A stretch of DNA of 44,150 bases from a virus. Lineage: Duplodnaviria > Heunggongvirae > Uroviricota > Caudoviricetes. Made by a program: the position numbers and the translations under genes. The notes below the pieces were generated by a model. That model saw nothing but the letters and a program-made list of their open reading frames with translations. It was not told the origin of the DNA and searched no databases. Where the stretch lies: the IMG/VR virus record IMGVR_UViG_3300045988_004957, one strand, 5' to 3'. Position 1 is the stretch's first letter. Every line of letters begins with the position of its first letter. This document shows, piece after piece, positions 4,644-36,829 of this stretch.

Positions 4644-4670
4644 AAGGCCCCGTTTGGGGCCTTAGTTTTA
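4644..4670. terminator. bidirectional rho-independent terminator
   Basis: AAGGCCCC-GTTT-GGGGCCTT followed by AGTTTTA; lies between convergent plus operon and minus tailspike gene. Confidence 0.7.
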
Positions 4671-14722: not shown

Positions 14723-14751
14723 TTGCACACCCCAATATAATAGTGTACTAT
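14723..14751 (+). promoter_or_regulatory. sigma70-like promoter with embedded dyad (site 1)
   Basis: TTGCAC-17 bp-TACTAT; dyad AATAGT-GT-ACTATT at 14739..14752; 40 bp upstream of ATG 14793. Confidence 0.55.
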
Positions 14752-14792
14752 TCACTTACACCAACGATGTTATCCCAAACAGGAGCTACACC

Positions 14793-14984
14793 ATGACGGG
14801 TATTACTATGTTCTTCTTAATCATTATCGTTTTAGTTTATTTTATTCCATTTCTCGTGGCGCATATGCGCGACCATAAAGCGAAATTAGCGATATTCATG
14901 GCTAATCTGTTTCTTGGATGGGTTCTGCTGCCGTGGGTATTTATTTTAATCTGGGCTTGCAACTCGAATGTCAAAGAGAAGTGA
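14793..14984 (+). CDS. superinfection-immunity-like small membrane protein
   Basis: 63 aa, two TM helices, FIPFLVAHMRDH ... NLFLGWVLLPW pattern recalls Imm-type proteins; SD AGGAG 7 nt upstream. Confidence 0.5.
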   Translation: MTGITMFFLIIIVLVYFIPFLVAHMRDHKAKLAIFMANLFLGWVLLPWVFILIWACNSNVKEK

Positions 14985-15021
14985 GCTAGTATAGGACAAA
15001 TCCTAAGCACTAGGAATAAAC

Positions 15022-16152
15022 ATGGCCCGGAAGAAAATAACCGACGAACAGTTGCAGGAAGAATTGAACGCCGGTATGAAGAATGTAGATATCGCCCGTA
15101 AATACGGCATCTCAGACCGCGTAATTCGTATCCGTAAAGCGAAGCTGGCTAAGAAAGGCGTGGGCCACGGGCGCGACGTTAGCCACCTTGTGCCAGACGG
15201 CTACAAGATTAAAGGAACGTCGTCACTTGTGGACGAGTTCGGCAACACTAAGTTGCAATGGGTTAAGACTGATACCGACGCCGAACGTCAGGTTGAATTG
15301 ATGAAAGCCGTAATAGAGGGCATGAAGTCAGAGATTACGCCCGTTGCGCCTGTTAAAGCGGCGCGCGCCAAACGTGACGACAAGCTACTCAATCTTTACA
15401 CTGTATCTGATTTCCATCTCGGTATGCTGGCATGGGCCGATGAGAGCGGCGACGACTGGGACATGAAGATTGCAGAAGACCTGTTCTCTCGGTGGTTCGA
15501 CGCGGCGTTTCAGAAAGCACCGGATGCAGGAACAGGAGTTATTAACCTGCTTGGGGACTTCGCACACTTCGATAGTCTTGATGCCGTTACCCCGGAGTCG
15601 CGCCATGTATTAGATGCGGATACTCGCTATCAGAAACTGGTACGTTACATGATTCGTATGGTCCGCCGTGTTGTTGATATGGCGCTGGTTAAGCATCACA
15701 CAGTAAAACTTTTAATCGTTCAAGGTAACCACGACCCTGTTGGCTCCGTATGGCTTGCCGAAATGTTCACGGTTTTATACTCAAACGACAGCCGAGTGAT
15801 TGTTGATACGTCGCCGGATGTTTACAAGATGGTGCAACACGGCAAAACGACGCTGTTCTTCCATCACGGGCATAAAGCACGATTCGACGCTATCGAACCG
15901 GTTATGATTGCCAAGTTCCGTAAAGCGTTCGGCGAGAGTGTTTACAGCTACGCCCACGTAGGCCATCTGCACCACCAGAAGATTGTAGAAAGCCGTAACA
16001 TGATTATTGAGCAACACCGCACCTTAGCGGCTAAAGACGCCTACGCCTCTCGCGGCGGATGGATGTCGGGCCGCAGTGCAAATGTAATTACTTATAGCGC
16101 CGAATATGGCGAGGTCGCACGTTTAACTATTTCACCGGAGATGCTGGGATGA
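15022..16152 (+). CDS. metallophosphoesterase with N-terminal HTH-like region
   Basis: Calcineurin-like motifs DxH (SDFHLG), GDxxD (GDFAHFD), GNHD (QGNHDP), HHGH, GHLHH; basic HTH-like N-terminus. Confidence 0.7.
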   Translation: MARKKITDEQLQEELNAGMKNVDIARKYGISDRVIRIRKAKLAKKGVGHGRDVSHLVPDGYKIKGTSSLVDEFGNTKLQWVKTDTDAERQVELMKAVIEGMKSEITPVAPVKAARAKRDDKLLNLYTVSDFHLGMLAWADESGDDWDMKIAEDLFSRWFDAAFQKAPDAGTGVINLLGDFAHFDSLDAVTPESRHVLDADTRYQKLVRYMIRMVRRVVDMALVKHHTVKLLIVQGNHDPVGSVWLAEMFTVLYSNDSRVIVDTSPDVYKMVQHGKTTLFFHHGHKARFDAIEPVMIAKFRKAFGESVYSYAHVGHLHHQKIVESRNMIIEQHRTLAAKDAYASRGGWMSGRSANVITYSAEYGEVARLTISPEMLG

Positions 16153-16637
16153 AAGATATTGTAATTTTCGATTTAGACGGGACATTGGCCGACGGTACCC
16201 ATCGCTTACACCTGTTACCAAAAGATAACTACGGAGAAACGTGGGCGTGGAAGCCATTTAACATGGCCTGCAAAGATGACGCTCCGATATACGACAATAT
16301 CCATTTGTGTAGCGTACTGTGGCATTCCGGACTTACTATAATTATCCTTACCGGGCGAAGTGATGACGCTGAGGAGGAGACTCGCGAATGGTTACGAGAG
16401 AATAACGTTAGGTTTGACACGCTAATCATGCGCAGCAAACACGACAACAGAAAAGACATCGTAATTAAAGAAGAGGTGTTGCGTGCTTTCGGACTGGAAA
16501 GAATCTTGTGTGCGTTCGACGACTCTCCAGCGGTAATAAAGCATTTCCGTGACCTCGGCATAACCGCACACGCAGTTACCGAATACGACTGTAACGGGAA
16601 CTCTACACACTTAAAACCACACGGGAGCGATAAATAA
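16149..16637 (+). CDS. HAD-superfamily phosphatase
   Basis: N-terminal DxDGT motif (FDLDGTLADGT) and downstream Asp-rich motif; ATGA overlap with upstream gene. Confidence 0.65.
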   Translation: MKDIVIFDLDGTLADGTHRLHLLPKDNYGETWAWKPFNMACKDDAPIYDNIHLCSVLWHSGLTIIILTGRSDDAEEETREWLRENNVRFDTLIMRSKHDNRKDIVIKEEVLRAFGLERILCAFDDSPAVIKHFRDLGITAHAVTEYDCNGNSTHLKPHGSDK

Positions 16638-17191
16638 TGGCTAAGGTAATTATTCTTAATGGCCCCGCGGGTTGCGGGAAAGACACGCTTGCTATGGCGC
16701 TGGTAGAAATGGGCTTTGCGAAAGGAACTACCAGTTTCAAGAATCCAATGTTCAATATTGCTTTGGCAGCGTTAGGCCAGGATGCTTACCACGAATTTCT
16801 CGACGGCTACGACGACCGGGCGCGGAAAGAAAAACCCGAGGGTTTTCTTAATGGGTTGTCCCGCCGCCAGTTAATGATTGCCATTTCTGAGCAATTCATT
16901 AAACCGGTATTCGGCGATGATTATTTCGGTAAGTATCTTGCTGAAAACTTGCCTGACGGCGACGAAGTTTTTGTAGTGTCCGACGGTGGATTCGCCAGTG
17001 AAGTTGCCCCTATCGTCGCCGCGGGGCATGACGTGCGAATCGTCCGCCTCCATCGTGACGGCTATACGTTCATCGGCGATAGCCGTGGCTATCTGTACGA
17101 TGTTAGTGGTGTAAAAGATTACGACACCTACATCATACCGGGTGACGTTAAATCGAACGTTATAGACATTGCTTTAAAATTAGGTTTGTAA
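16637..17191 (+). CDS. P-loop kinase (dNMP-kinase-like)
   Basis: Walker A with GKDT variant (NGPAGCGKDTLA); 184 aa; last gene before terminator. Confidence 0.6.
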   Translation: MAKVIILNGPAGCGKDTLAMALVEMGFAKGTTSFKNPMFNIALAALGQDAYHEFLDGYDDRARKEKPEGFLNGLSRRQLMIAISEQFIKPVFGDDYFGKYLAENLPDGDEVFVVSDGGFASEVAPIVAAGHDVRIVRLHRDGYTFIGDSRGYLYDVSGVKDYDTYIIPGDVKSNVIDIALKLGL

Positions 17192-17195
17192 GAAA

Positions 17196-17222
17196 AAGGC
17201 CCCGAAAGGGGCCTTAGTTTTA
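17196..17222. terminator. bidirectional rho-independent terminator
   Basis: AAGGCCCC-GAAA-GGGGCCTT followed by AGTTTTA; near-identical to the terminator at 4644. Confidence 0.7.
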
Positions 17223-18392
17223 TGCGTAGGTGATACGTTGAATTACGATAGACGACTGGTACTGATTGCCGGTAGCCTGGCCTTCAATGGACTGAGTGAT
17301 TGACTCAGGCCCACCAATCTCAGGTGTAACCGCCGTAAGCTCTGCTCGTTTCAAACTGAAAGACATAGCCCCGTTTACCCCTGCCAGAATAGAGTTAATC
17401 TCTACCTGCTGCTCGTTGATAAACTTCTGAATCATCGCCATGTCGTACAGCTTGCCAGAGATAGAGAATGTGTTAGCTGCGCGTCCACGTTCGACGAACG
17501 CCACGCTACTGTTACCGAGTTCGAACTGCGCGGAAGCTCCGTTGTCGTTGGTGATGGTGAGAGTATCGCAACGCAACGGCGTGGAGCCATCGAACACCGA
17601 CACATCTACCGACGAGAACGGCTCATCGGTGAACGTAACCTGAGAGAAATCAGAGCCAGACGGCGGCGCGGTAAGAATCTCCTGACTCAGGCCGATGAAC
17701 GGGAAGCTGCCGGTGACCATGGCGTTAACCGCCTGCTCTACGGTAAAGCCAGAGATTTCCACACCTTTGGTCAGCATGTACGCGTCCGGGTTACCACACT
17801 GGCCCTTGAACCACGTCAGGATGGAGAACGTCTTACACGCGTTACCGGTTTCCAGCTTGTCGCCAGTTTTTGCGTCAGTGGTTACTGTCTCTGCTGTCAG
17901 CGTGTGCTGAATACCTGCGCCCGTAACTACCAGAGCGGAAACCGCGGTCACGATAAACGGTTTTGCGTTGTCGCCGGTTAAGTCGGTGAACGCAATAAGG
18001 TCGCCAACTTCTACACCGTCAGTAATGAAGCTACCGGCAGCGCGGGTGAATGTTTTACCTGCTGGGGCGACCATAATTTCGGCGCCAGTAATCTCTACCC
18101 CAGCTTGCCACGTAGAAGTCATCGCTCCCGCAAGGAAATCATCCTGGCTACGAGAGCTAAGTTCGATGGCGTACTCCCCGCTAACCTGTTTGTTACCGGT
18201 TCGGATGGATGTAGTTTCACGGCTGCCGTCTAGTTCGTTGGAAGTCAGCGCATCGCGGGTTACGGCAGGAACACCGCCAGTGTTACGCAACGGCGACCAG
18301 ACAGGGTTAGCCGGTGTTACGCCCGGGGTAGTTTCCGCCACATAGAATTGCGCGGTATTCGCGCCCTTAAAAGGAGTTGTAGCCATATTCAC
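17220..18392 (-). CDS. putative major tail protein
   Basis: 390 aa Thr/Gly/Ala-rich ORF at the position of a major tail subunit. Confidence 0.5.
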   Translation of the reverse strand: MNMATTPFKGANTAQFYVAETTPGVTPANPVWSPLRNTGGVPAVTRDALTSNELDGSRETTSIRTGNKQVSGEYAIELSSRSQDDFLAGAMTSTWQAGVEITGAEIMVAPAGKTFTRAAGSFITDGVEVGDLIAFTDLTGDNAKPFIVTAVSALVVTGAGIQHTLTAETVTTDAKTGDKLETGNACKTFSILTWFKGQCGNPDAYMLTKGVEISGFTVEQAVNAMVTGSFPFIGLSQEILTAPPSGSDFSQVTFTDEPFSSVDVSVFDGSTPLRCDTLTITNDNGASAQFELGNSSVAFVERGRAANTFSISGKLYDMAMIQKFINEQQVEINSILAGVNGAMSFSLKRAELTAVTPEIGGPESITQSIEGQATGNQYQSSIVIQRITYA

Positions 18393-21623: not shown

Positions 21624-22673
21624 TTAAGCCCCGACACCAGTTACCAGGAAGGCAATCGGTACATGCTTACGGTCAACCACACGGTTCCAGTTGGAAGCGT
21701 TCGCCAGGTCCTGCCAGGAAGCAGAGCGGGCGATAGTCTCGGTGCCGTTGCCGGTGATTACAGTGCTGGTGAAACTGTAACCAAACGGATGCAGCAACCA
21801 GGTCTTACGGGTCCACAGGGTTTCGACACCACCACCGTTACCGCGAGACGCTTCGCGCTCGTATTCCAGCGGGTTTGACGGAGAACCTTCGCCGTAACCG
21901 ATAGCACCGTTGCCGAAGATGATGGAGATGAACTTACGGCTGTTGCCAGTTCCGACTACGGTCATGCTGTCGTCAACAATCACACGATAGCCCTGGTAGG
22001 TGGCGAACATGGTGTTGTTGTCAGCGTCGCGAATGAAGTCGATAAGCTGCTGCTTACGCGCCTGCGCATAAACGAAGCTGTGCATCGCGATAGCGCCAAG
22101 CACTTCACCACCGTTACCCATCAGCGCATCGCCCATAGTCTGGGTAGCATCGATGAACGCGCCGGAGTCGAAGCCCAGAGTAGCGGACACGTCAATAACC
22201 ATGTCGTTCTGCTCGTGGTACGCATCGGTAGCCGCTACGTTATCATTGTACAGACCGAGCGCGGTAGCAATAAGACGGCGTTGTGCCTGACGCTGCCAGA
22301 AGTTATCCAGACGGGAAGCCACGGATTGCAGCGGATTCTGGCTGGTCAGTTCTACCGTCAGGTCAGCCTGACCAAAACCTTCGTTCAGGTAAGCTACGCG
22401 AACATCCATCTCACCGGTTTGCACGTTACGCGGGGTGGCGACGTCCTGATATACGTCGTTCGAGTAGTTCGGCTCGATAGAGGTATCAATAGCTTTCCAG
22501 TACGGCAGGACCGCTTTGTTGGACGGGCCGTTTGCGATAGCGGCGGCATACGGAGTCGAGGTAAGGATACCGGACTGGAAGAACGCGGTTTTCTCTACCG
22601 GGTCCTCTGTCATGTAGGACAGGATTACCGATTCTTTACCAGTTACGATGTCGCCGATAGTAGTAATTGCCAT
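21624..22673 (-). CDS. major capsid protein
   Basis: 349 aa ORF between scaffold-like gene and strong terminator; SD GAGGAA; TAATG coupling to scaffold. Confidence 0.7.
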   Translation of the reverse strand: MAITTIGDIVTGKESVILSYMTEDPVEKTAFFQSGILTSTPYAAAIANGPSNKAVLPYWKAIDTSIEPNYSNDVYQDVATPRNVQTGEMDVRVAYLNEGFGQADLTVELTSQNPLQSVASRLDNFWQRQAQRRLIATALGLYNDNVAATDAYHEQNDMVIDVSATLGFDSGAFIDATQTMGDALMGNGGEVLGAIAMHSFVYAQARKQQLIDFIRDADNNTMFATYQGYRVIVDDSMTVVGTGNSRKFISIIFGNGAIGYGEGSPSNPLEYEREASRGNGGGVETLWTRKTWLLHPFGYSFTSTVITGNGTETIARSASWQDLANASNWNRVVDRKHVPIAFLVTGVGA

Positions 22674-23387
22674 TATTTTTTCCTCAGGGCTTTAAGTTGC
22701 CGTTCAAATTCGGCAGGGTTCGATTCGTACAGAGCGATACGCTCCGCTTCACTCATGTCTTTAAACGCTGGTGCGGCCCCGCCGCCTTTGCTACCGGAAG
22801 CCCCGCCGCCGGAAGCTGCATTTGCTTTAATCAAATGTGAAAACGCTTTGTGTTCTCGCAAGTATTTGCGGAACTGTTCCGGGTCAGTCGTGATTACGTT
22901 GCCGTCTGCGCCAACAAACTTAGTAACCACGTCATCGCCTTCGAACTCAGTCTTAACGAACGGCGCAAGAATGTCCACTGCTTCTGGGGTAATAAAGTCA
23001 CCCGCGAAAGAGCCTAGCACCGCTTTACGTTCGCTGCCGAGGATACGCTCTGCCATTCTGGAGATGCGACCGTCTTTCTCGGCTAACACCGGGTCATACT
23101 GGCTACGAATCGTCTTTTCGAACTCATCCATCTTACCAGCGGCTTTTAACGCCTCCTGGTGCGCGCGCTGCCGTTCTTCTTCGGCCTCTTTTGCTTTGCG
23201 AGCGGCTTCTTTCTTCTCCGCGAGCAATGCTTCCTGATTAGCCTTAAGCCCGGCAACTTCTTTCTCAATCAGCGCCTGAACTTCTTCAGCGGTGAACATT
23301 TTCGGCGCGTCACCGCCACCAGCTTTATCTTCTGCCCCAGCTTCTTCCTGGAACGGATAACGTAAAAAACGATTCATAGTCAGTATG
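22673..23387 (-). CDS. scaffolding protein
   Basis: Charged Ala/Glu/Lys-rich coiled-coil directly upstream of capsid gene; start taken at ATG 23387 rather than upstream TTG 23431. Confidence 0.55.
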
Positions 23388-23459
23388 TCCCCTGGACGTT
23401 GGAATCCGGGCCTCCCGGATTTACATGTCAAGAATAAATTATTCCAACATACAAGGCAA

Positions 23460-23723
23460 CTATTCCAGAATATTCCTCACGTAATCCTGCAACATGAACA
23501 CTTTCAGCCGCAGCTGCCGTACGCATTCAGCGTTCTGAACGTCGATAGCTAAATCCTCGTCAGCGTCGCTACTTGGCGCTGCCAGTTTGCACGGAGGCTG
23601 CATCATCGTCGTATCCGGTAATGGAATTAGCGTTTGCGACGGCGTGGGACTTGAGCTGCACGCGCTCAGGGTCAAAAGTGCACACGCTGCGACCCGGCGT
23701 TTTAATGTATTTAACGACTTCAC
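23460..23723 (-). CDS. o-spanin (Rz1-like lipoprotein)
   Basis: Signal peptide with lipobox LSAC then Pro-rich mature part; begins inside i-spanin gene in another frame and extends past it. Confidence 0.7.
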   Translation of the reverse strand: MKSLNTLKRRVAACALLTLSACSSSPTPSQTLIPLPDTTMMQPPCKLAAPSSDADEDLAIDVQNAECVRQLRLKVFMLQDYVRNILE

Positions 23724-23955
23724 GGGTAATCACCTCTGATTTCGTCTTGCCTTCGTTGTCGGCGGCGGCGGCCTTTGATTCGTCCTGCTGCTGCCGTTGT
23801 GTTTTCTTCGCTAACTCAGCCTGCGCTTTCTGCTGTTGCTGCGAAACGAGATTCGCCCGGCCTTCGCTCCAGCCGCTGCGATACTGGTAAATGCCGTGGG
23901 CGTAAGCCAGGATGATGAAACATGCTCCCGCTACGACAGTTGCTTTAAGATTCAT
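23569..23955 (-). CDS. i-spanin (Rz-like)
   Basis: N-terminal TM helix followed by charged Gln/Ala/Lys-rich periplasmic domain; overlaps o-spanin. Confidence 0.7.
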   Translation of the reverse strand: MNLKATVVAGACFIILAYAHGIYQYRSGWSEGRANLVSQQQQKAQAELAKKTQRQQQDESKAAAADNEGKTKSEVITREVVKYIKTPGRSVCTFDPERVQLKSHAVANANSITGYDDDAASVQTGSAK

Positions 23956-23979
23956 GTTTCCCCTTTCTCGATAAGTAAA

Positions 23980-23999
23980 GCCCTGCCTTAAAGCAGGGC
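23980..23999 (-). terminator. GC hairpin with T-rich tail on minus strand
   Basis: GCCCTGC-6 nt-GCAGGGC, followed on minus strand by TTTACTTAT. Confidence 0.45.
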
Positions 24000-24065
24000 G
24001 CTAGTCCTTATCATTTAAACATAGAAACGGCGTAATCTAAGTAAACCTGTTACTTTTTACACAAG

Positions 24066-24208
24066 CAATAGAGTATGGCCCTTCCGAACGCGTCAGCGTA
24101 ACTACACTCAGGACTTACGTCCCGCTCCGTTACCTGCCCGCGCCGCGGTCGCTTGTTCATACTTCACAAGCTCAGGTGGAGCTTATCATATTTTTAGTGA
24201 AAAGTCAA
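24066..24208. repeat. dispersed ~145-bp non-coding repeat, copy A
   Basis: Aligns with 36397..36539 over about 143 bp incl. identical 43-bp block 24143..24185. Confidence 0.9.
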
Positions 24209-24274
24209 CTATTCGAATAGTTTATTCCAACATTTACAATTCGGTGGAATAACTGGAATACGTAAATAAATAGT

Positions 24275-24303
24275 TTGCACACCCCAATATAATAGGGTAC
24301 TAT
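24275..24303 (+). promoter_or_regulatory. sigma70-like promoter with embedded dyad (site 2)
   Basis: TTGCAC-17 bp-TACTAT, near-identical to site 1; dyad at 24291..24304. Confidence 0.55.
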
Positions 24304-24330
24304 TCAGTTAACTTAAACAGGAGGTGAAAA

Positions 24331-24534
24331 ATGTATGCAATTTGCGAAGTAGTTCAAGAGTTCGATGAAGAGTTCGACGGTGACTTGTGCCGTGTTAAAA
24401 AGGTTCTGCAGGTTTTCCCTGACGCAATGTCTGCTTACAGGGCATTAGATATATTTGAACCTGGAAGATACGGGGATTATGACACTGTTCTGAGGGTTGT
24501 CCATGAGCAGGATTTAAACACAAGATTCCGTTGA
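24331..24534 (+). CDS. hypothetical protein (moron-like, 67 aa)
   Basis: Lone plus-strand ORF with SD AGGAGGTGA, own promoter and terminator inside minus-strand structural module. Confidence 0.55.
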   Translation: MYAICEVVQEFDEEFDGDLCRVKKVLQVFPDAMSAYRALDIFEPGRYGDYDTVLRVVHEQDLNTRFR

Positions 24535-24539
24535 AAACT

Positions 24540-24562
24540 AAGGCCCCTTAATGGGGCCTTTT
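24540..24562. terminator. bidirectional rho-independent terminator
   Basis: AGGCCCC-TTAAT-GGGGCCT followed by TTTTAT; between convergent genes. Confidence 0.65.
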
Positions 24563-24563
24563 A

Positions 24564-25025
24564 TCATTCTGGTTTAGCGACCTTCGCCGCTTTACTGACG
24601 GCCTCTACGCCACCGGCATCGGTAACTTTAACGAAGTATTCACCAACTGCATTAACCGTCAGAGACAAGGCCTCTTCCGGGGCGTTTACCACTTCCTTAC
24701 CGTCTTTGTACCAGGTCAGAGCATACGGTGCTTTACCCGCCTTAACTTCGACAGTGATAGTTGCGCTGCCATCTGTAAGTTCAGTGTCTTTCGGTTGCAC
24801 AGAGAAGTACACGTCACCAGCGTCCGCCAGATACGGAATCTCGTAAAGCATGCCAGCAGCGGGTAACGCAATACCGGTTTTATCTGCAAACGGCATATCG
24901 TCCACTGGCGCACCCAGTACACTTTCGTCTTCAATAAATACCACGTTCTCGCCAGAGCCAGACACGCGGGCGTACTGGACTACGCGACGAGACGGTACGT
25001 CAGTTACTTTGAAAAAGCCCATCAT
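24564..25025 (-). CDS. Ig-like domain virion protein
   Basis: APYALTWYKDGKEV ... VGEYFVKV Ig-like pattern; between head morphogenesis gene and spanins. Confidence 0.5.
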   Translation of the reverse strand: MMGFFKVTDVPSRRVVQYARVSGSGENVVFIEDESVLGAPVDDMPFADKTGIALPAAGMLYEIPYLADAGDVYFSVQPKDTELTDGSATITVEVKAGKAPYALTWYKDGKEVVNAPEEALSLTVNAVGEYFVKVTDAGGVEAVSKAAKVAKPE

Positions 25026-26101
25026 TATTCCCCTTTCAGATAATCAGCAACACGTTTATCGAGTTCCGCCATCTGCTTAAGCGTGAGCGGATTCCCGAAA
25101 CCATCTACAGATATTACGCGAAACTCTTCCGGCGATATACCGCTGTTACGGAAAATCTTACCTCGCACCGGGCCGAGCGCCTGGTCCTGAAACCACGCCG
25201 GTTGTTGTTTAAGGAACTCGTAGTAAGTGGTGTCTGCGCTTACCTGAGTGCCACCTTCCGCGCCTTTAGCCGCGCGTTTTGCGCCTTTATCGAGGAAGTC
25301 GAACTCGGAACTGATTACCGGAGCCGTGCACGACCGGCAGTTCGGATGGGCTGGGGGCATCGGCCCCTTACCAATTTCCCACGTCATCCCGTCTCTGACC
25401 CTGCAAATCGTACTGGTGCGGCTGTCAAGCGTTGACACCCACTCGTACTTCTCGATGATGTCGTCGTTCTGGCGGTACGTCTCGTTACGGGCCTCGTTGG
25501 ATACGTGGGACAGCGCGGTGCGGATTACCGTAGTCGCGTTACGTTCTGAGATGTCGGCTAGTCCACCAGCGCCAACAACATTCTTAACAATCTGCCGTGT
25601 GGTTTGACCTTGCACAAAGCCCATCTTAACTCCAGTTACAAGACGTGCTACTTCCGTTTCGCCCCATCCAGACATCAGCTTGGTGAAATCAACGGGCTTG
25701 TCGCTCAATGATAATGGTTGAAACTCGGCAGCGGACCATACCTGCTCAGCGGTAGGCGTAACAAATTCCGCGTCTACGTTGGCGGTCAGTGTCTTTACGT
25801 TCCACTCAGCCTCGTACGCCGCCAGTTCCTTAAGGTCGTCTGTTAGCTTTGTTTGCCAGTCACCCGTAATACCGGTTAGTGCTTCTTCCAGGTCGCGTAA
25901 CAGTTTATTCAGTCGCGCAGTGCTGCGACCGTCGTCACCGAATAACAGCACCTGCCGTTTGATTTCATCCCTTATCTCCTGAATGAACGGCGTGAGGTCT
26001 TTCACCTCACCGGATGCGGTGCGTTGCAGCCATATCTGATGGCTGATTAGGGATGTAAGTAAGCTCATAGATAAACCCTGTGGCGCTAAAGTTAATAGCA
26101 T
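25025..26101 (-). CDS. head morphogenesis protein (minor head)
   Basis: 358 aa ORF immediately downstream of portal, as for Mu F / SPP1 gp7-type proteins. Confidence 0.55.
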   Translation of the reverse strand: MLLTLAPQGLSMSLLTSLISHQIWLQRTASGEVKDLTPFIQEIRDEIKRQVLLFGDDGRSTARLNKLLRDLEEALTGITGDWQTKLTDDLKELAAYEAEWNVKTLTANVDAEFVTPTAEQVWSAAEFQPLSLSDKPVDFTKLMSGWGETEVARLVTGVKMGFVQGQTTRQIVKNVVGAGGLADISERNATTVIRTALSHVSNEARNETYRQNDDIIEKYEWVSTLDSRTSTICRVRDGMTWEIGKGPMPPAHPNCRSCTAPVISSEFDFLDKGAKRAAKGAEGGTQVSADTTYYEFLKQQPAWFQDQALGPVRGKIFRNSGISPEEFRVISVDGFGNPLTLKQMAELDKRVADYLKGE

Positions 26102-26110
26102 ACTATAAGA

Positions 26111-26126
26111 AAGCCCCTTTCGGGGC
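26111..26126 (-). terminator. hairpin / attenuator after portal gene
   Basis: AGCCCC-GAAA-GGGGCT on minus strand followed by TTCTTAT. Confidence 0.4.
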
Positions 26127-26137
26127 TATAGGTGAAC

Positions 26138-27619
26138 TTACTGCTGAGTGGTGTCCTGTTGCTGCGCCGACTGCGGAATCTCTCCCGCTACCTGAGCAAC
26201 AGAACCCAACGGCAGAGGTGCGTCTTCAATAGCGTTCTGAATGTCCTCATCTGTCCAGTCAGTCACACCTGCCTTGCGCAACGCAGCATAGTAAGCGGTG
26301 GCGGGTAGCAGGCCAGCGTTAATATCCGCCATCCACTGAGCGCGGTCCTGAGCTGTCATAGGTTGCAGGAAGAATTCCATATTCAGCTTGAACTCAATCT
26401 CAGTATCTTCACTAAGCCCAAGCATACCCGCAACCCAGCGCAACGCATCGGTATACGCCATGCTTACATTACGTGCTATTGTTGCCATGACTGACGTGTC
26501 GGCGCCGCGTTGCAGGCGGGCCGATTCCGCGGTGATTTGCTGCGTCGGGGTGATAAGCTGCGCGCCAATCTGGATGGCCTGATTCTCTTTATCCAGCATA
26601 TTCTGTTTGGCGAGGTTAGTTTCCGCCGCCTGAACCAGAAACGCATTTCCGCCGGAGCCGATGTTGTGGCCTGAACGCGACCCCATGCGTATGCCGTGTG
26701 GGTTGGCTTCTTTCCACTGCTCCATGCTCATGTTCTCGCCGGGGGCAATGAACAGTGTCGGTTGACCTACTATAAAGCTGGCCTCTTCCACATCGGCCGA
26801 ATTTCTGAAGTGTCCTATATTTAGCTCAGCTAACGGCAGTAAAGGCGCATCGTCTATAGTGGCGTCGTTGTTGCTTGCGCCAATGAACGTGAACGGGATT
26901 TTACCGCGCAACTGTTCGCCGAGTTCCGGGAAGATTTCGATTACTTCATCCTGTGCGCCACCTTCGGCATCGAAGCGGTAGATGCGCTGGCGGTAGCGAC
27001 CGTCAATCAGGTCAAGGACGCGGTATTGCTCGCCGAATTTTGTTTCAAACTCAGCGCCTGGTTCCGAGTATTCCCATGCCTCACGCAATACAACCATCGT
27101 CACGCGGTTCACTGAACCGATGCGGGTGAGTCTCCAGTTGATAATGTTCTCCGCGGTATAGAATGCGATTACCGGGTTTAATAATCCCGCGTTCTGCTCT
27201 GCCGCCGTTGCTGCGGCTGTTTCCGGGGCGTCCACCAGCAACCCGCCACGGCCTATCGAGTTAATCTCCATCAGCGTATCCTGCGCGTGCTGCCACAGCC
27301 CGACACCTGAACCGTCAGCGTTGTGCAACAGGTACTCAAGTTCAGGCGGGATAATCTGCTCAGGGTCTTTGCGCATCACTGACCCCGTCATCCCCGCCAG
27401 CGTGCGTTTGGTGAAATTGTAGCAGATAGCGCCGTTCTCGTATTCTTCCTGTCGCTGTGCTGCGTAGGTCTGGTCAGGCTCGTTCTTCCCGACGTTGCGC
27501 AGATAGCGGATAAGGTCGCCTTCAAGAGCGTGGCGTACCTTCTGCCATTTATCGAAGTGATGCAGCCATTCCCGGTGTTTTGTCTTAACACCCTGATTCT
27601 GACCGTTCATAGTTAACAT
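26138..27619 (-). CDS. portal protein
   Basis: 493 aa acidic ORF between terminase large subunit and head morphogenesis gene. Confidence 0.65.
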   Translation of the reverse strand: MLTMNGQNQGVKTKHREWLHHFDKWQKVRHALEGDLIRYLRNVGKNEPDQTYAAQRQEEYENGAICYNFTKRTLAGMTGSVMRKDPEQIIPPELEYLLHNADGSGVGLWQHAQDTLMEINSIGRGGLLVDAPETAAATAAEQNAGLLNPVIAFYTAENIINWRLTRIGSVNRVTMVVLREAWEYSEPGAEFETKFGEQYRVLDLIDGRYRQRIYRFDAEGGAQDEVIEIFPELGEQLRGKIPFTFIGASNNDATIDDAPLLPLAELNIGHFRNSADVEEASFIVGQPTLFIAPGENMSMEQWKEANPHGIRMGSRSGHNIGSGGNAFLVQAAETNLAKQNMLDKENQAIQIGAQLITPTQQITAESARLQRGADTSVMATIARNVSMAYTDALRWVAGMLGLSEDTEIEFKLNMEFFLQPMTAQDRAQWMADINAGLLPATAYYAALRKAGVTDWTDEDIQNAIEDAPLPLGSVAQVAGEIPQSAQQQDTTQQ

Positions 27620-33028: not shown

Positions 33029-33329
33029 TACCACCTCCGCGGCGTGCGATATATTCTCCGGCGACAATGCCAGAGAGACGGGAATAAATTGGCATCCAGA
33101 GAATAGCAATGATGAATCCAAGGCCCGCTATTTCGCGTTCACCTGCGATACCGAACCATTGAGCGGCGAGAGGCGCACCGAATACGGCGCACGCAAAGCC
33201 AGTGGCGAGAAAACAGAGAGCATCGACAGGGCCGGTAATAGTGGCTTTGTGTTGCCGTAAGCCTATTACCCCACCAGCTAATGCGGCAGCGAGAAGCCAC
33301 CCCGTCACTGTTTCAGTAAATTTATCCAA
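33021..33329 (-). CDS. putative holin
   Basis: 102 aa with TM helices and charged C-terminus, first gene of lysis cassette; start codon is TTG. Confidence 0.5.
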   Translation of the reverse strand: MDKFTETVTGWLLAAALAGGVIGLRQHKATITGPVDALCFLATGFACAVFGAPLAAQWFGIAGEREIAGLGFIIAILWMPIYSRLSGIVAGEYIARRGGGNE

Positions 33330-33375
33330 GATGAAGCCACCCCGTCACTGTTTCAGTAAATTTATCCAAGATGAA
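33293..33375. repeat. 40-bp tandem direct repeat (2 copies) across the holin start
   Basis: 33293..33332 identical to 33333..33372, next 3 nt also repeat. Confidence 0.9.
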
Positions 33376-34955: not shown

Positions 34956-35088
34956 TTACCCCGAACTCATTGATGATTTGAGCCTTGTAGAAGTTGCCGT
35001 TTGAGGCCAGGTGATATGCCTGCGCCATAGTCATCTCACGGTAAGTTGCTGCGCTGTTTTCAAACTCCATAATCATCAAAGTAACCAT
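34939..35088 (-). CDS. hypothetical protein (49 aa)
   Basis: ATG 35088 with SD GGAGAGG, first ORF downstream of promoter site 3. Confidence 0.35.
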   Translation of the reverse strand: MVTLMIMEFENSAATYREMTMAQAYHLASNGNFYKAQIINEFGVIDYEF

Positions 35089-35118: not shown

Positions 35119-35147
35119 ATAGTAGACTATTCTATCCCAGTGTGCAA
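35119..35147 (-). promoter_or_regulatory. sigma70-like promoter with embedded dyad (site 3)
   Basis: Minus strand TTGCAC-17 bp-TACTAT; perfect dyad AATAGT-AG-ACTATT at 35118..35131. Confidence 0.5.
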
Positions 35148-35948: not shown

Positions 35949-36167
35949 TTATTTAAAGTAGATAGCAAATTTCTTGTAACCCGCTGGCTCGTTACGAAGT
36001 CCTTTACCGTTAGCGAAACGTTGTACGTTAACAAAATCATTTTCATCCATTCCGTCGGTGTCGAACGTAAAGAAGTTGCGCTTGTTCCCGATAATTACGC
36101 GCTCTGAGATATCGATGCCGTAAACTTCTTTGATTGCGGAAACTACGCTTGCGGTCGCTTTGTTCAT
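35949..36167 (-). CDS. hypothetical protein
   Basis: 72 aa, first gene after promoter site 4; SD AAGGAA. Confidence 0.45.
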   Translation of the reverse strand: MNKATASVVSAIKEVYGIDISERVIIGNKRNFFTFDTDGMDENDFVNVQRFANGKGLRNEPAGYKKFAIYFK

Positions 36168-36201: not shown

Positions 36202-36230
36202 ATAGTATCCTATTATGTTGGGGTGTGCAA
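36202..36230 (-). promoter_or_regulatory. sigma70-like promoter with embedded dyad (site 4)
   Basis: Minus strand TTGCACACCCCAACATAATAGGATACTAT; dyad at 36201..36214. Confidence 0.55.
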
Positions 36231-36396: not shown

Positions 36397-36539
36397 CAAT
36401 AGATTATGGCCCTTCCGAATGCAGGCAGCGACACTACACTCAGTGCTGACGCACCGCTCCGTTTCCTGCCGCACCGCGGTCGCTTGTTCATACTTCACAA
36501 GCTCAGGTGGAGCTTAGCACATTTCTTAGTAAAAGTCAA
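36397..36539. repeat. dispersed ~145-bp non-coding repeat, copy B
   Basis: Paralogue of 24066..24208; identical 43-bp block at 36474..36516. Confidence 0.9.
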
Positions 36540-36646: not shown

Positions 36647-36829
36647 ATGCAGCATTACATGACACAGAATGAAGTGGCTGAACGTATCGGGGTGACACGT
36701 CAAACAATTAATAACTGGTTGCGCAGCGGTAAATTCCCTGATTGCTGTATTAAGGTTATGGGTCGCCGTTTACCAGGAACATTTGACCGTAATAAAGTTG
36801 AAGCATGGATTAAGGAGAACGTGAAATGA
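36647..36829 (+). CDS. AlpA/excisionase-like HTH DNA-binding protein
   Basis: 60 aa from ATG 36647 (SD CAGGAG); GKFP ... W pattern of AlpA-type HTH proteins. Confidence 0.55.
   Translation: MQHYMTQNEVAERIGVTRQTINNWLRSGKFPDCCIKVMGRRLPGTFDRNKVEAWIKENVK

Follow-up and report, generated by a model that had tools for sequence, protein, structure and literature searches.

Classic morons are genes that a repressed prophage expresses to the benefit of the lysogen; the morons of the lambdoid phages HK97 and HK022 were the subject of Juhala et al. and Hendrix et al., both in 2000. A second type of inserted unit, the PeSL (promoter-early stem-loop) cassette, is found in the T4-type phages, where sigma-70-type promoter motifs and stem-loop terminators surround variable, mostly orphan ORFs (PMC2839356; PMC4122927). 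The PeSLs were proposed to provide the homology needed to shuffle modules (Arbiol et al. 2010, PMC2839356; Comeau et al. 2014, PMC4122927), to give each ORF transcription signals and to shield neighbouring late genes, and they were found beside hoc too (PMC2839356; PMC4122927). Phage accessory regions, or anti-defence hotspots, were defined by Silas et al. (bioRxiv 10.1101/2023.04.06.535777), whose study contained no gene from the spanin-Hoc locus considered below and made no mention of Kagunavirus or Jersey-like phages.

The locus lies in a stretch of viral DNA of 44,150 nucleotides (IMGVR_UViG_3300045988_004957), the whole of which is referred to as the window and comes from a virulent siphophage of the genus Kagunavirus (Guernseyvirinae). 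This genus comprises common, small, virulent coliphages, which are represented in the BASEL collection and have been called attractive for synthetic biology (PMC11990801), and lysogeny genes were reported to be absent in descriptions of the group (PMC7203180; PMC9825357). The region around the ORF at 24331-24534 was ~95% identical to Escherichia Kagunavirus phages, including Bas70-76 of BASEL. Two GenBank records, OR594180.1 (vB_EcoM_SHAK7693, L054) and OR594183.1 (vB_EcoM_SHAK7858, L051), are labelled Autographiviridae/Kayfunavirus, yet are collinear with Kagunavirus siphophages.

An initial annotation of the window had described a self-contained moron cassette in the structural module, consisting of a plus-strand 67-aa ORF with a conserved promoter, a strong SD and a bidirectional terminator, set among minus-strand head and lysis genes and adjacent to a repeat copy A. 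Each of these elements was recovered. The ORF begins with an ATG and has an SD 5 nt 5' of it, the hairpin behind it is stable on both strands with U-rich tails on both sides, the Rz/Rz1, Hoc-like, Mu-F-like and portal genes are all on the minus strand, and copy A was found at 24066-24208 with a copy B at 36397-36539. The reading favoured here is of an accessory-gene cassette that occupies a conserved socket for expression in a virulent Kagunavirus. As a whole this account is considered likely, and the socket architecture taken alone highly probable. The features of the cassette and its surroundings are as follows.

21624-22673, minus strand: major capsid protein, structural module
22673-23431, minus strand: scaffold, structural module
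23460-23955, minus strand: Rz/Rz1 spanins, left neighbour of the cassette
23956-24260, minus strand: conserved left flank outside the cassette, with a leftward promoter, the repeat A leader and a hairpin at 23980-23999
24261-24274, plus strand: start of the inserted unit, AT-rich, cgtaaataaatagt, with the left indel edge between 24260 and 24261
24275-24303, plus strand: predicted class II sigma-70-type promoter, TTGCAC-N17-TACTAT, with four copies in the window
24291-24304, no strand assigned: palindrome AATAG-N4-CTATT, candidate operator, overlapping the -10 box
24304-24330, plus strand: 5' leader with the SD AGGAGGT (24319-24325), cagttaacttaaacaggag being common to many cargos in both sockets
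24331-24534, plus strand: cargo gene for an acidic 67-aa protein, identified from dN/dS, homologs and AlphaFold
24540-24560, no strand assigned: predicted two-way intrinsic terminator hairpin, AAGGCCCC-TTAAT-GGGGCCTT, identified from its fold and its conservation in relatives
24564-25025, minus strand: Hoc-like decoration protein, right neighbour of the cargo ORF
25025-26101, minus strand: Mu-F-like head morphogenesis protein, structural module
26102-26137, no strand assigned: second socket in the gap between Mu-F and portal, empty in the window, being a 36-nt spacer with a terminator hairpin only
26138-27619, minus strand: portal, structural module

The cassette runs on the strand opposite to the head genes and is positioned at the border of a portal-MuF-Hoc unit and an Rz-scaffold-capsid unit. 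A gene lying between a Hoc-like decoration gene and spanin and scaffold genes might be taken for an accessory of head assembly or decoration, but such a role is very improbable; the gene and the signals that belong to it are on the opposite strand, and the gene is absent or replaced in most relatives and has its homologs in non-structural modules of other phages, while its slot is shared with enzymes unrelated to virions.

Variation at the locus was investigated with 39 IMG/VR loci collected by using the Hoc-like protein as an anchor, 36 of which span the gap between spanin and Hoc, and the same gap was aligned from five GenBank phages. It was empty in 9 of the 36 loci and otherwise held 12 unrelated cargos, all on the plus strand. 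The contents recorded were:

9 of 36 loci: empty, lacking promoter and ORF, with a related terminator alone
8 of 36: 173-aa protein, inconsistently annotated as "DNA polymerase III sliding clamp" or "RusA-like resolvase"
3 of 36: the 67-aa cargo ORF of the window
3 of 36: 94-106-aa protein
2 of 36: N6/N4 DNA methyltransferase (PF01555)
2 of 36: Endonuclease-VII/HNH-like protein
2 of 36: 70-75-aa membrane protein
2 of 36: 83-aa orphan
2 of 36: 81-aa orphan
1 of 36: 114-aa lipoprotein
1 of 36: 57-aa orphan
1 of 36: 33-aa membrane peptide

Among the GenBank phages a 63-aa ORF was found in the gap of SHAK7693 and no more than a 33-aa ORF in that of K1H. A comparison of presence and absence in related phages had been suggested with the initial annotation, and the absence of the promoter-ORF-terminator block from those nine loci supports an accessory unit of the moron type. 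Empty loci read ...ggaataactggaata, with the last matching base at 24260, and then pass directly to the Hoc terminator. Compared with XY2, SHAK7693 and K1H, the left flank was kept as far as the ATG (24333), with repeat A, the promoter and the SD included, and the only right-flank sequence kept was that across the terminator (24534-24563), which forms the right exchange boundary, everything between having been replaced. Left breakpoints fell into three classes, at 24260 (whole unit absent), at 24306 (right after the -10 box) and at 24325-24334 (start codon). Most exchanges swapped the coding sequence alone, from ATG to terminator, and the breakpoints coincided with the promoter/leader and terminator motifs. 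These alignments support a reading in which promoter, leader and terminator stay resident and the ORF is the swappable part. The description of the unit as self-contained was half right, since the promoter, 5' leader and terminator are resident and shared: the promoter belongs to a class found genome-wide, and the flanks recur around at least 12 unrelated cargos and once more at a second gap. Likewise the classic moron arrangement was matched by the indel, the cassette's own signals and the deviant base composition, but the part of the concept that concerns prophage expression is probably inapplicable because the phage group is reported to be without lysogeny genes.

The promoter of the cassette comprises a -35 box TTGCAC (24275-24280), a 17-nt spacer and a -10 box TACTAT (24298-24303), with transcription predicted to start near 24310. 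That it is conserved was borne out at the level of sequence, the 36-mer from 24275 being one of four copies in the window, of which the copy at 14723 is 94% identical and two are inverted; zero chance matches to the 35-mer promoter pattern were expected. The three sister copies are:

14723-14751, plus strand: sister class II promoter that would drive the Imm gene at 14793-14984 and then the genes at 15022-17191
35119-35147, minus strand: sister class II promoter inside a leftward small-gene array, with the next gene start at 35088
36202-36230, minus strand: sister class II promoter heading the same leftward small-gene array, with the first gene start at 36167

All four copies are followed in the same orientation by an SD and a start codon 22-42 nt downstream, the class II promoter occurs at the same four positions in K1H, XY2 and SHAK7693, and its hexamers were kept across the slot variants. 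The match to the sigma-70 consensus is weak (~7-8 of 12 positions), and a generic sigma-70 scan missed the promoter at 24275-24303 for this reason. Stronger promoters, designated class I (TTGACA-N17-TATAGT), lie ahead of the rightward replication-side genes. Common to both classes is the palindrome AATAG-N4-CTATT, for which 11 sites were found in the window against 0.9 expected by chance, including those at 2329, 14739, 24291, 35118, 36201, 40055, 40099 and 42923. Between the classes the -35 and -10 boxes are both displaced by the same 6 nt relative to the palindrome, and this equal shift supports the assignment of the hexamers. The palindrome agrees with the PHIRE consensus tgAATAGTa-ccTATTat-T reported for Kagunavirus fBC-Eco01 (PMC9825357). 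It is probably an operator for a phage regulator, and a small HTH protein encoded at 36647-36829 is one candidate for that regulator. A published paper attributed the motif to a "phage-encoded RNA polymerase", which seems unlikely, as the K1H, XY2, SHAK7693 and VSt10 records have no such enzyme annotated.

The orientation of the PHIRE consensus raised the alternative that the element fires leftward into the Rz and head genes, or makes an antisense regulatory RNA, with the ORF being incidental. The palindromic core is symmetric, and the minus-strand reading has the orientation of the PHIRE consensus with a TATATT -10 box. Phages with an empty slot are, however, without the element and yet keep Rz and the head genes, and the SD and ATG follow in the TTGCAC-to-TACTAT direction both at the four copies and at their counterparts in three relatives. 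There is also no conserved -35 box on the minus strand, a separate invariant leftward promoter lies at 24180-24208 and the ORF is under purifying selection. Leftward firing was rejected and retains next to no credibility.

With the promoter read rightward, expression of the cargo would probably be early or middle rather than late, as the promoter class heads the small-gene arrays (36167 and 35088, leftward) and the Imm/exonuclease/PNKP island, the G+C content of the ORF resembles that of small early-type genes and homologs sit in replication or small-gene runs elsewhere. The cargo ORF has a G+C content of 43.1%, lower than that of the window (50.5%) and of its neighbours (52-55%), which places it in the lowest 9% of 204-nt windows; small early-type genes are similar to it at 40-43%, while structural genes are at 52-55%. 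A search of the literature yielded no study in which the transcriptome or promoters of Guernseyvirinae had been mapped.

The hairpin at 24540-24560 has a G+C-rich stem of 8 bp and free energies of -16.5 kcal/mol on the plus strand and -16.0 kcal/mol on the minus strand, with z-scores against shuffles of -3.5 and -3.7 respectively. It is predicted to end the cargo transcript on the plus strand and that of Hoc on the minus strand. Sister copies of this terminator were found at 4644, 17196 and 43648.

Immediately to the left of the cassette, repeat A (about 24060-24212) was 95-100% identical across 181 phage records; among these are Salmonella Jerseyviruses, in which the genes flanking the repeat were only 60-90% identical. 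The leftward promoter within it is given here.

24180-24208, minus strand: leftward promoter TTGACT-N17-TGnTAAGCT, kept in all 34 distinct copies with a variable spacer

Downstream of it the leader forms a long hairpin with four compensated pairs that passed slid-partner controls, its G-U pairs favour the minus strand, and it ends in the hairpin at 23980-23999, 25 nt ahead of the Rz start. Searches of Rfam yielded no family, either with the whole window at the gathering threshold or with 23940-24340 at E <= 1. It is suggested that repeat A is a conserved promoter with a structured leader or attenuator for the spanin-scaffold-capsid unit, a reading that is suggestive only because the variation comes from just three related sequences. 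Copy B (36397-36539) is 82-92% identical to repeat A and is missing in K1H, XY2 and SHAK7693, and ~43 of the 181 records have two repeat copies. In one metagenomic relative, L030 (IMGVR_UViG_3300045988_039442), a B-like variant occupies the position of repeat A. The conserved leader also contains, at 24050-24160 on the minus strand, a 36-aa ORF to which Bas76, SHAK7693 and other records give the label "hypothetical protein"; since the middle of this ORF shows no conservation at the protein level between copies A and B, the annotation is probably an artefact. Elsewhere in the window a perfect tandem duplication of 40 nt was observed at 33293-33372, where GAAGCCACCCCGTCACTGTTTCAGTAAATTTATCCAAGAT occurs twice.

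The second socket, between Mu-F and portal, contained a terminator only in 23 of 35 metagenomic loci and a cargo in the other 12. In nine of these 12 and in SHAK7693 the insert opens with the class II promoter and leader known from the first socket (...TTGCAGacaccaatataatagggTACTATtcagttaacttaaacaggag...ATG), and in eight of those nine and, again, in SHAK7693 it ends in the same AACTAAGGCCCC-type terminator. The same promoter and leader were upstream of at least 12 cargos in the first socket and of 10 cargo sets in the second, and three cargos (the 173-aa protein, the methyltransferase and the 57-aa protein) were common to both. In Jerseyvirus VSt10, which belongs to a different genus, a homolog of the 67-aa gene occupies the second socket with the same promoter core and terminator. 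The insert of L030 at this position has three genes, encoding a 52-aa ORF, a Vut_1/YhhQ-type transporter (PF02592) and a DpdA-like transglycosylase (phrog_887, E = 3e-84), the latter two of which suggest a module for 7-deazaguanine DNA modification.

A third exchange point is probably the first gene after the promoter at 14723, which is a superinfection-immunity gene in the window and SHAK7693 and an unrelated 108-aa gene in K1H and XY2. The genes that follow this promoter are:

14793-14984, plus strand: superinfection-immunity gene (PF14373), after the class II promoter at 14723
15022-17191, plus strand: metallophosphatase-type exonuclease, PNKP-like HAD phosphatase and kinase-like gene

They form an island (14723-17225) on the plus strand inside the tail module, which terminates at a sister two-way terminator, and the phosphatase/kinase part of this island is replaced in XY2 and SHAK7693. 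A socket mechanism operating across the genome was considered and rejected. Most indels and mosaic joints relative to K1H, XY2 and SHAK7693 are without these motifs, so the mechanism would be local rather than genome-wide.

From the breakpoints it can be proposed that cargo is exchanged by homologous recombination, the anchors of homology being the promoter plus leader on the left (~60-75 nt) and the terminator on the right (~28 nt). Exchange would occur between co-infecting phages and between the two sockets, and the frame would thereby provide both the expression signals and the homology. Host RNA polymerase would transcribe the cassette in early or mid-infection, independently of the late head genes; convergent late transcription may dampen the cassette later, and the two-way terminator would insulate in both directions.

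The length of the ORF at 24331-24534 is in itself unremarkable, and the evidence that it is coding comes from relatives. When it was compared with the copy in SHAK7858, the most divergent Kagunavirus copy and the one taken as reference for dN/dS, 18 of the 27 nucleotide differences were at third codon positions and dN/dS was 0.19. The possibility, raised at the outset, that the ORF is a degraded remnant or is not conserved did not hold up, and by comparative sequence analysis it is a real gene under purifying selection. Across 20 homologs the motifs FDG, VLQxF, RVV and a C-terminal FR were invariant or nearly so. Homologs with 44-98% identity were detected by tblastn in 33 phage records, among them Jerseyvirus VSt10, Cornellvirus Shemara, Jedunavirus Geezett with related Klebsiella phage records, and the 60-kb Klebsiella phage vB_Kpn2-P2. 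Around 20 GenBank phage records carried the ORF, against 305 that matched the surrounding region, and it was present in all of Bas70-76. In other phage types the homolog is co-directional with replication or small-gene modules. A search of one large protein collection returned 18 clusters, composed only of short phage or metagenome proteins, and a deep profile search returned only 22 small clusters among 1.8 billion representative proteins; two longer proteins among the matches to the family bear extra N-terminal sequence.

The protein has a pI of 4.5 and a net charge of -6.4, and AlphaFold predicted with a pLDDT of 90.5 a fold of two long beta-strands, a helix, a short helix and a third strand, i.e. 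beta-beta-alpha-(alpha)-beta. It was found to have no membrane segment, signal peptide, catalytic motif or nucleic-acid-binding motif. The absence of a recognisable motif, noted at first from the sequence, was upheld by searches of Pfam (no match) and PHROGs (only phrog_27256, of unknown function, weakly at E = 1e-3), and nothing was found by PADLOC or by a sequence profile search of the PDB. Foldseek gave no match against the PDB, the similarities of fold being below significance; the BFVD library of viral structures matched only uncharacterised phage proteins; and among known anti-defence and defence families no characterised member was similar in sequence or fold. Substitutions among close homologs were concentrated at residues 32-45 (the helix) and 59-64 (the C-terminal stretch).

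As to function, the most likely role of the protein is tentatively taken to be the blocking of a host defence or host factor by stoichiometric binding, a guess that falls somewhat short of being probable. It is based on the protein being small, acidic and non-enzymatic, on its sockets being shared with counter-restriction enzymes and on the clustering of substitutions on one helix and the C-terminal stretch, which would form the contact surface. The alternative cargos with counter-restriction functions are the N6/N4 DNA methylase (PF01555) and the DpdA-like transglycosylase with its Vut_1/YhhQ transporter. According to a published report (PMC11990801), restriction-modification systems are highly effective against Bas70-76, whose sensitivity to Old varies. 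Since these phages all carry the ORF, a general anti-restriction role was rejected as unlikely. A conserved partner gene was also sought and discarded, the downstream neighbours in four phage groups being mutually unrelated.

Two other roles have to be weighed against that of a binder. The first, that the protein acts in competition between phages by superinfection exclusion and not against host immunity, draws on the superinfection-immunity gene at 14793-14984 having the same class of promoter ahead of it and on the presence among the socket cargos of a lipoprotein and of small membrane proteins, which are typical products of exclusion genes; it is nevertheless improbable, as the 67-aa protein is soluble and acidic and has neither signal peptide nor membrane segment, unlike most known exclusion proteins, and a homolog lies inside replication modules in other phages. 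The second would have the protein assist phage DNA replication or nucleic-acid metabolism as an accessory factor. Two metagenomic phage contigs have the homolog directly after DNA polymerase A and ahead of a small gene of 112-115 aa, and in vB_Kpn2-P2 it lies between "RNA ligase" and primase. However, the ORF is dispensable, being missing from most Kagunaviruses despite the same replication genes, no neighbour is conserved across phage groups, and the protein is negatively charged and has no nucleic-acid-binding motif, all of which makes this role decidedly improbable. The binder reading can be extended to propose that the 67-aa proteins form a new family of small inhibitors directed at a host defence or host factor, with a fast-changing helix that tracks the target, and that both sockets together are a PeSL-like cassette-exchange system for counter-defence genes of the Guernseyvirinae; taken together these propositions are speculative and rather unlikely to hold in full.

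One further accessory gene will not surprise a specialist. The value of the locus lies in a base-pair map of two natural sites at which the phage tolerates, and would express and insulate, foreign genes, a map that is useful for payload insertion; if the account is true, the sockets are natural payload sites for engineered Kagunaviruses. Since the sockets of some phages carry a DNA methylase and a putative 7-deazaguanine module, the orphan cargos, including the 67-aa protein, become testable candidates for counter-defence or takeover functions. The idea of shuffling anchored on promoters and terminators would also be extended from T4-type myoviruses to an unrelated siphovirus subfamily.

Set beside the known systems, the cassette resembles the lambdoid morons in being extra DNA between genes that are adjacent in relatives (9/36 loci empty), in having, at the level of sequence, its own promoter and terminator, in the deviation of its base composition from the surroundings and in its site within a late structural operon. 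It differs in that the phage group is virulent, whereas classic morons serve the lysogen, and in that the promoter and terminator belong to the recurring signals of the phage itself and stay fixed while the ORFs change. With the accessory regions of Silas et al. it shares a fixed locus between core genes and variable, exchanged, non-essential genes, some of them counter-defence genes such as DNA methylases, but that concept is defined by gene content, whereas here a frame of promoter, leader and terminator and breakpoints at base-pair level are added. In its way of working the cassette would appear to come closest to the PeSLs of T4-type phages. In both a repeated, conserved sigma-70-like promoter lies directly upstream of variable ORFs; breakpoints of insertion, deletion and replacement fall at the motifs, with the same cargos at either socket; and the window promoter has likewise a small palindrome between and over its -35 and -10 boxes. 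The PeSL is, however, one composite motif, whereas the window promoter and the G+C-rich terminator are separate and at opposite ends of the cargo, and the window palindrome is a weak 5-bp A+T stem that overlaps the -10 box and is more operator-like than terminator-like. Finally, PeSLs occupy large hyperplastic regions, whereas here there are two or three sockets per genome, lying antisense in the virion module of a small siphovirus.
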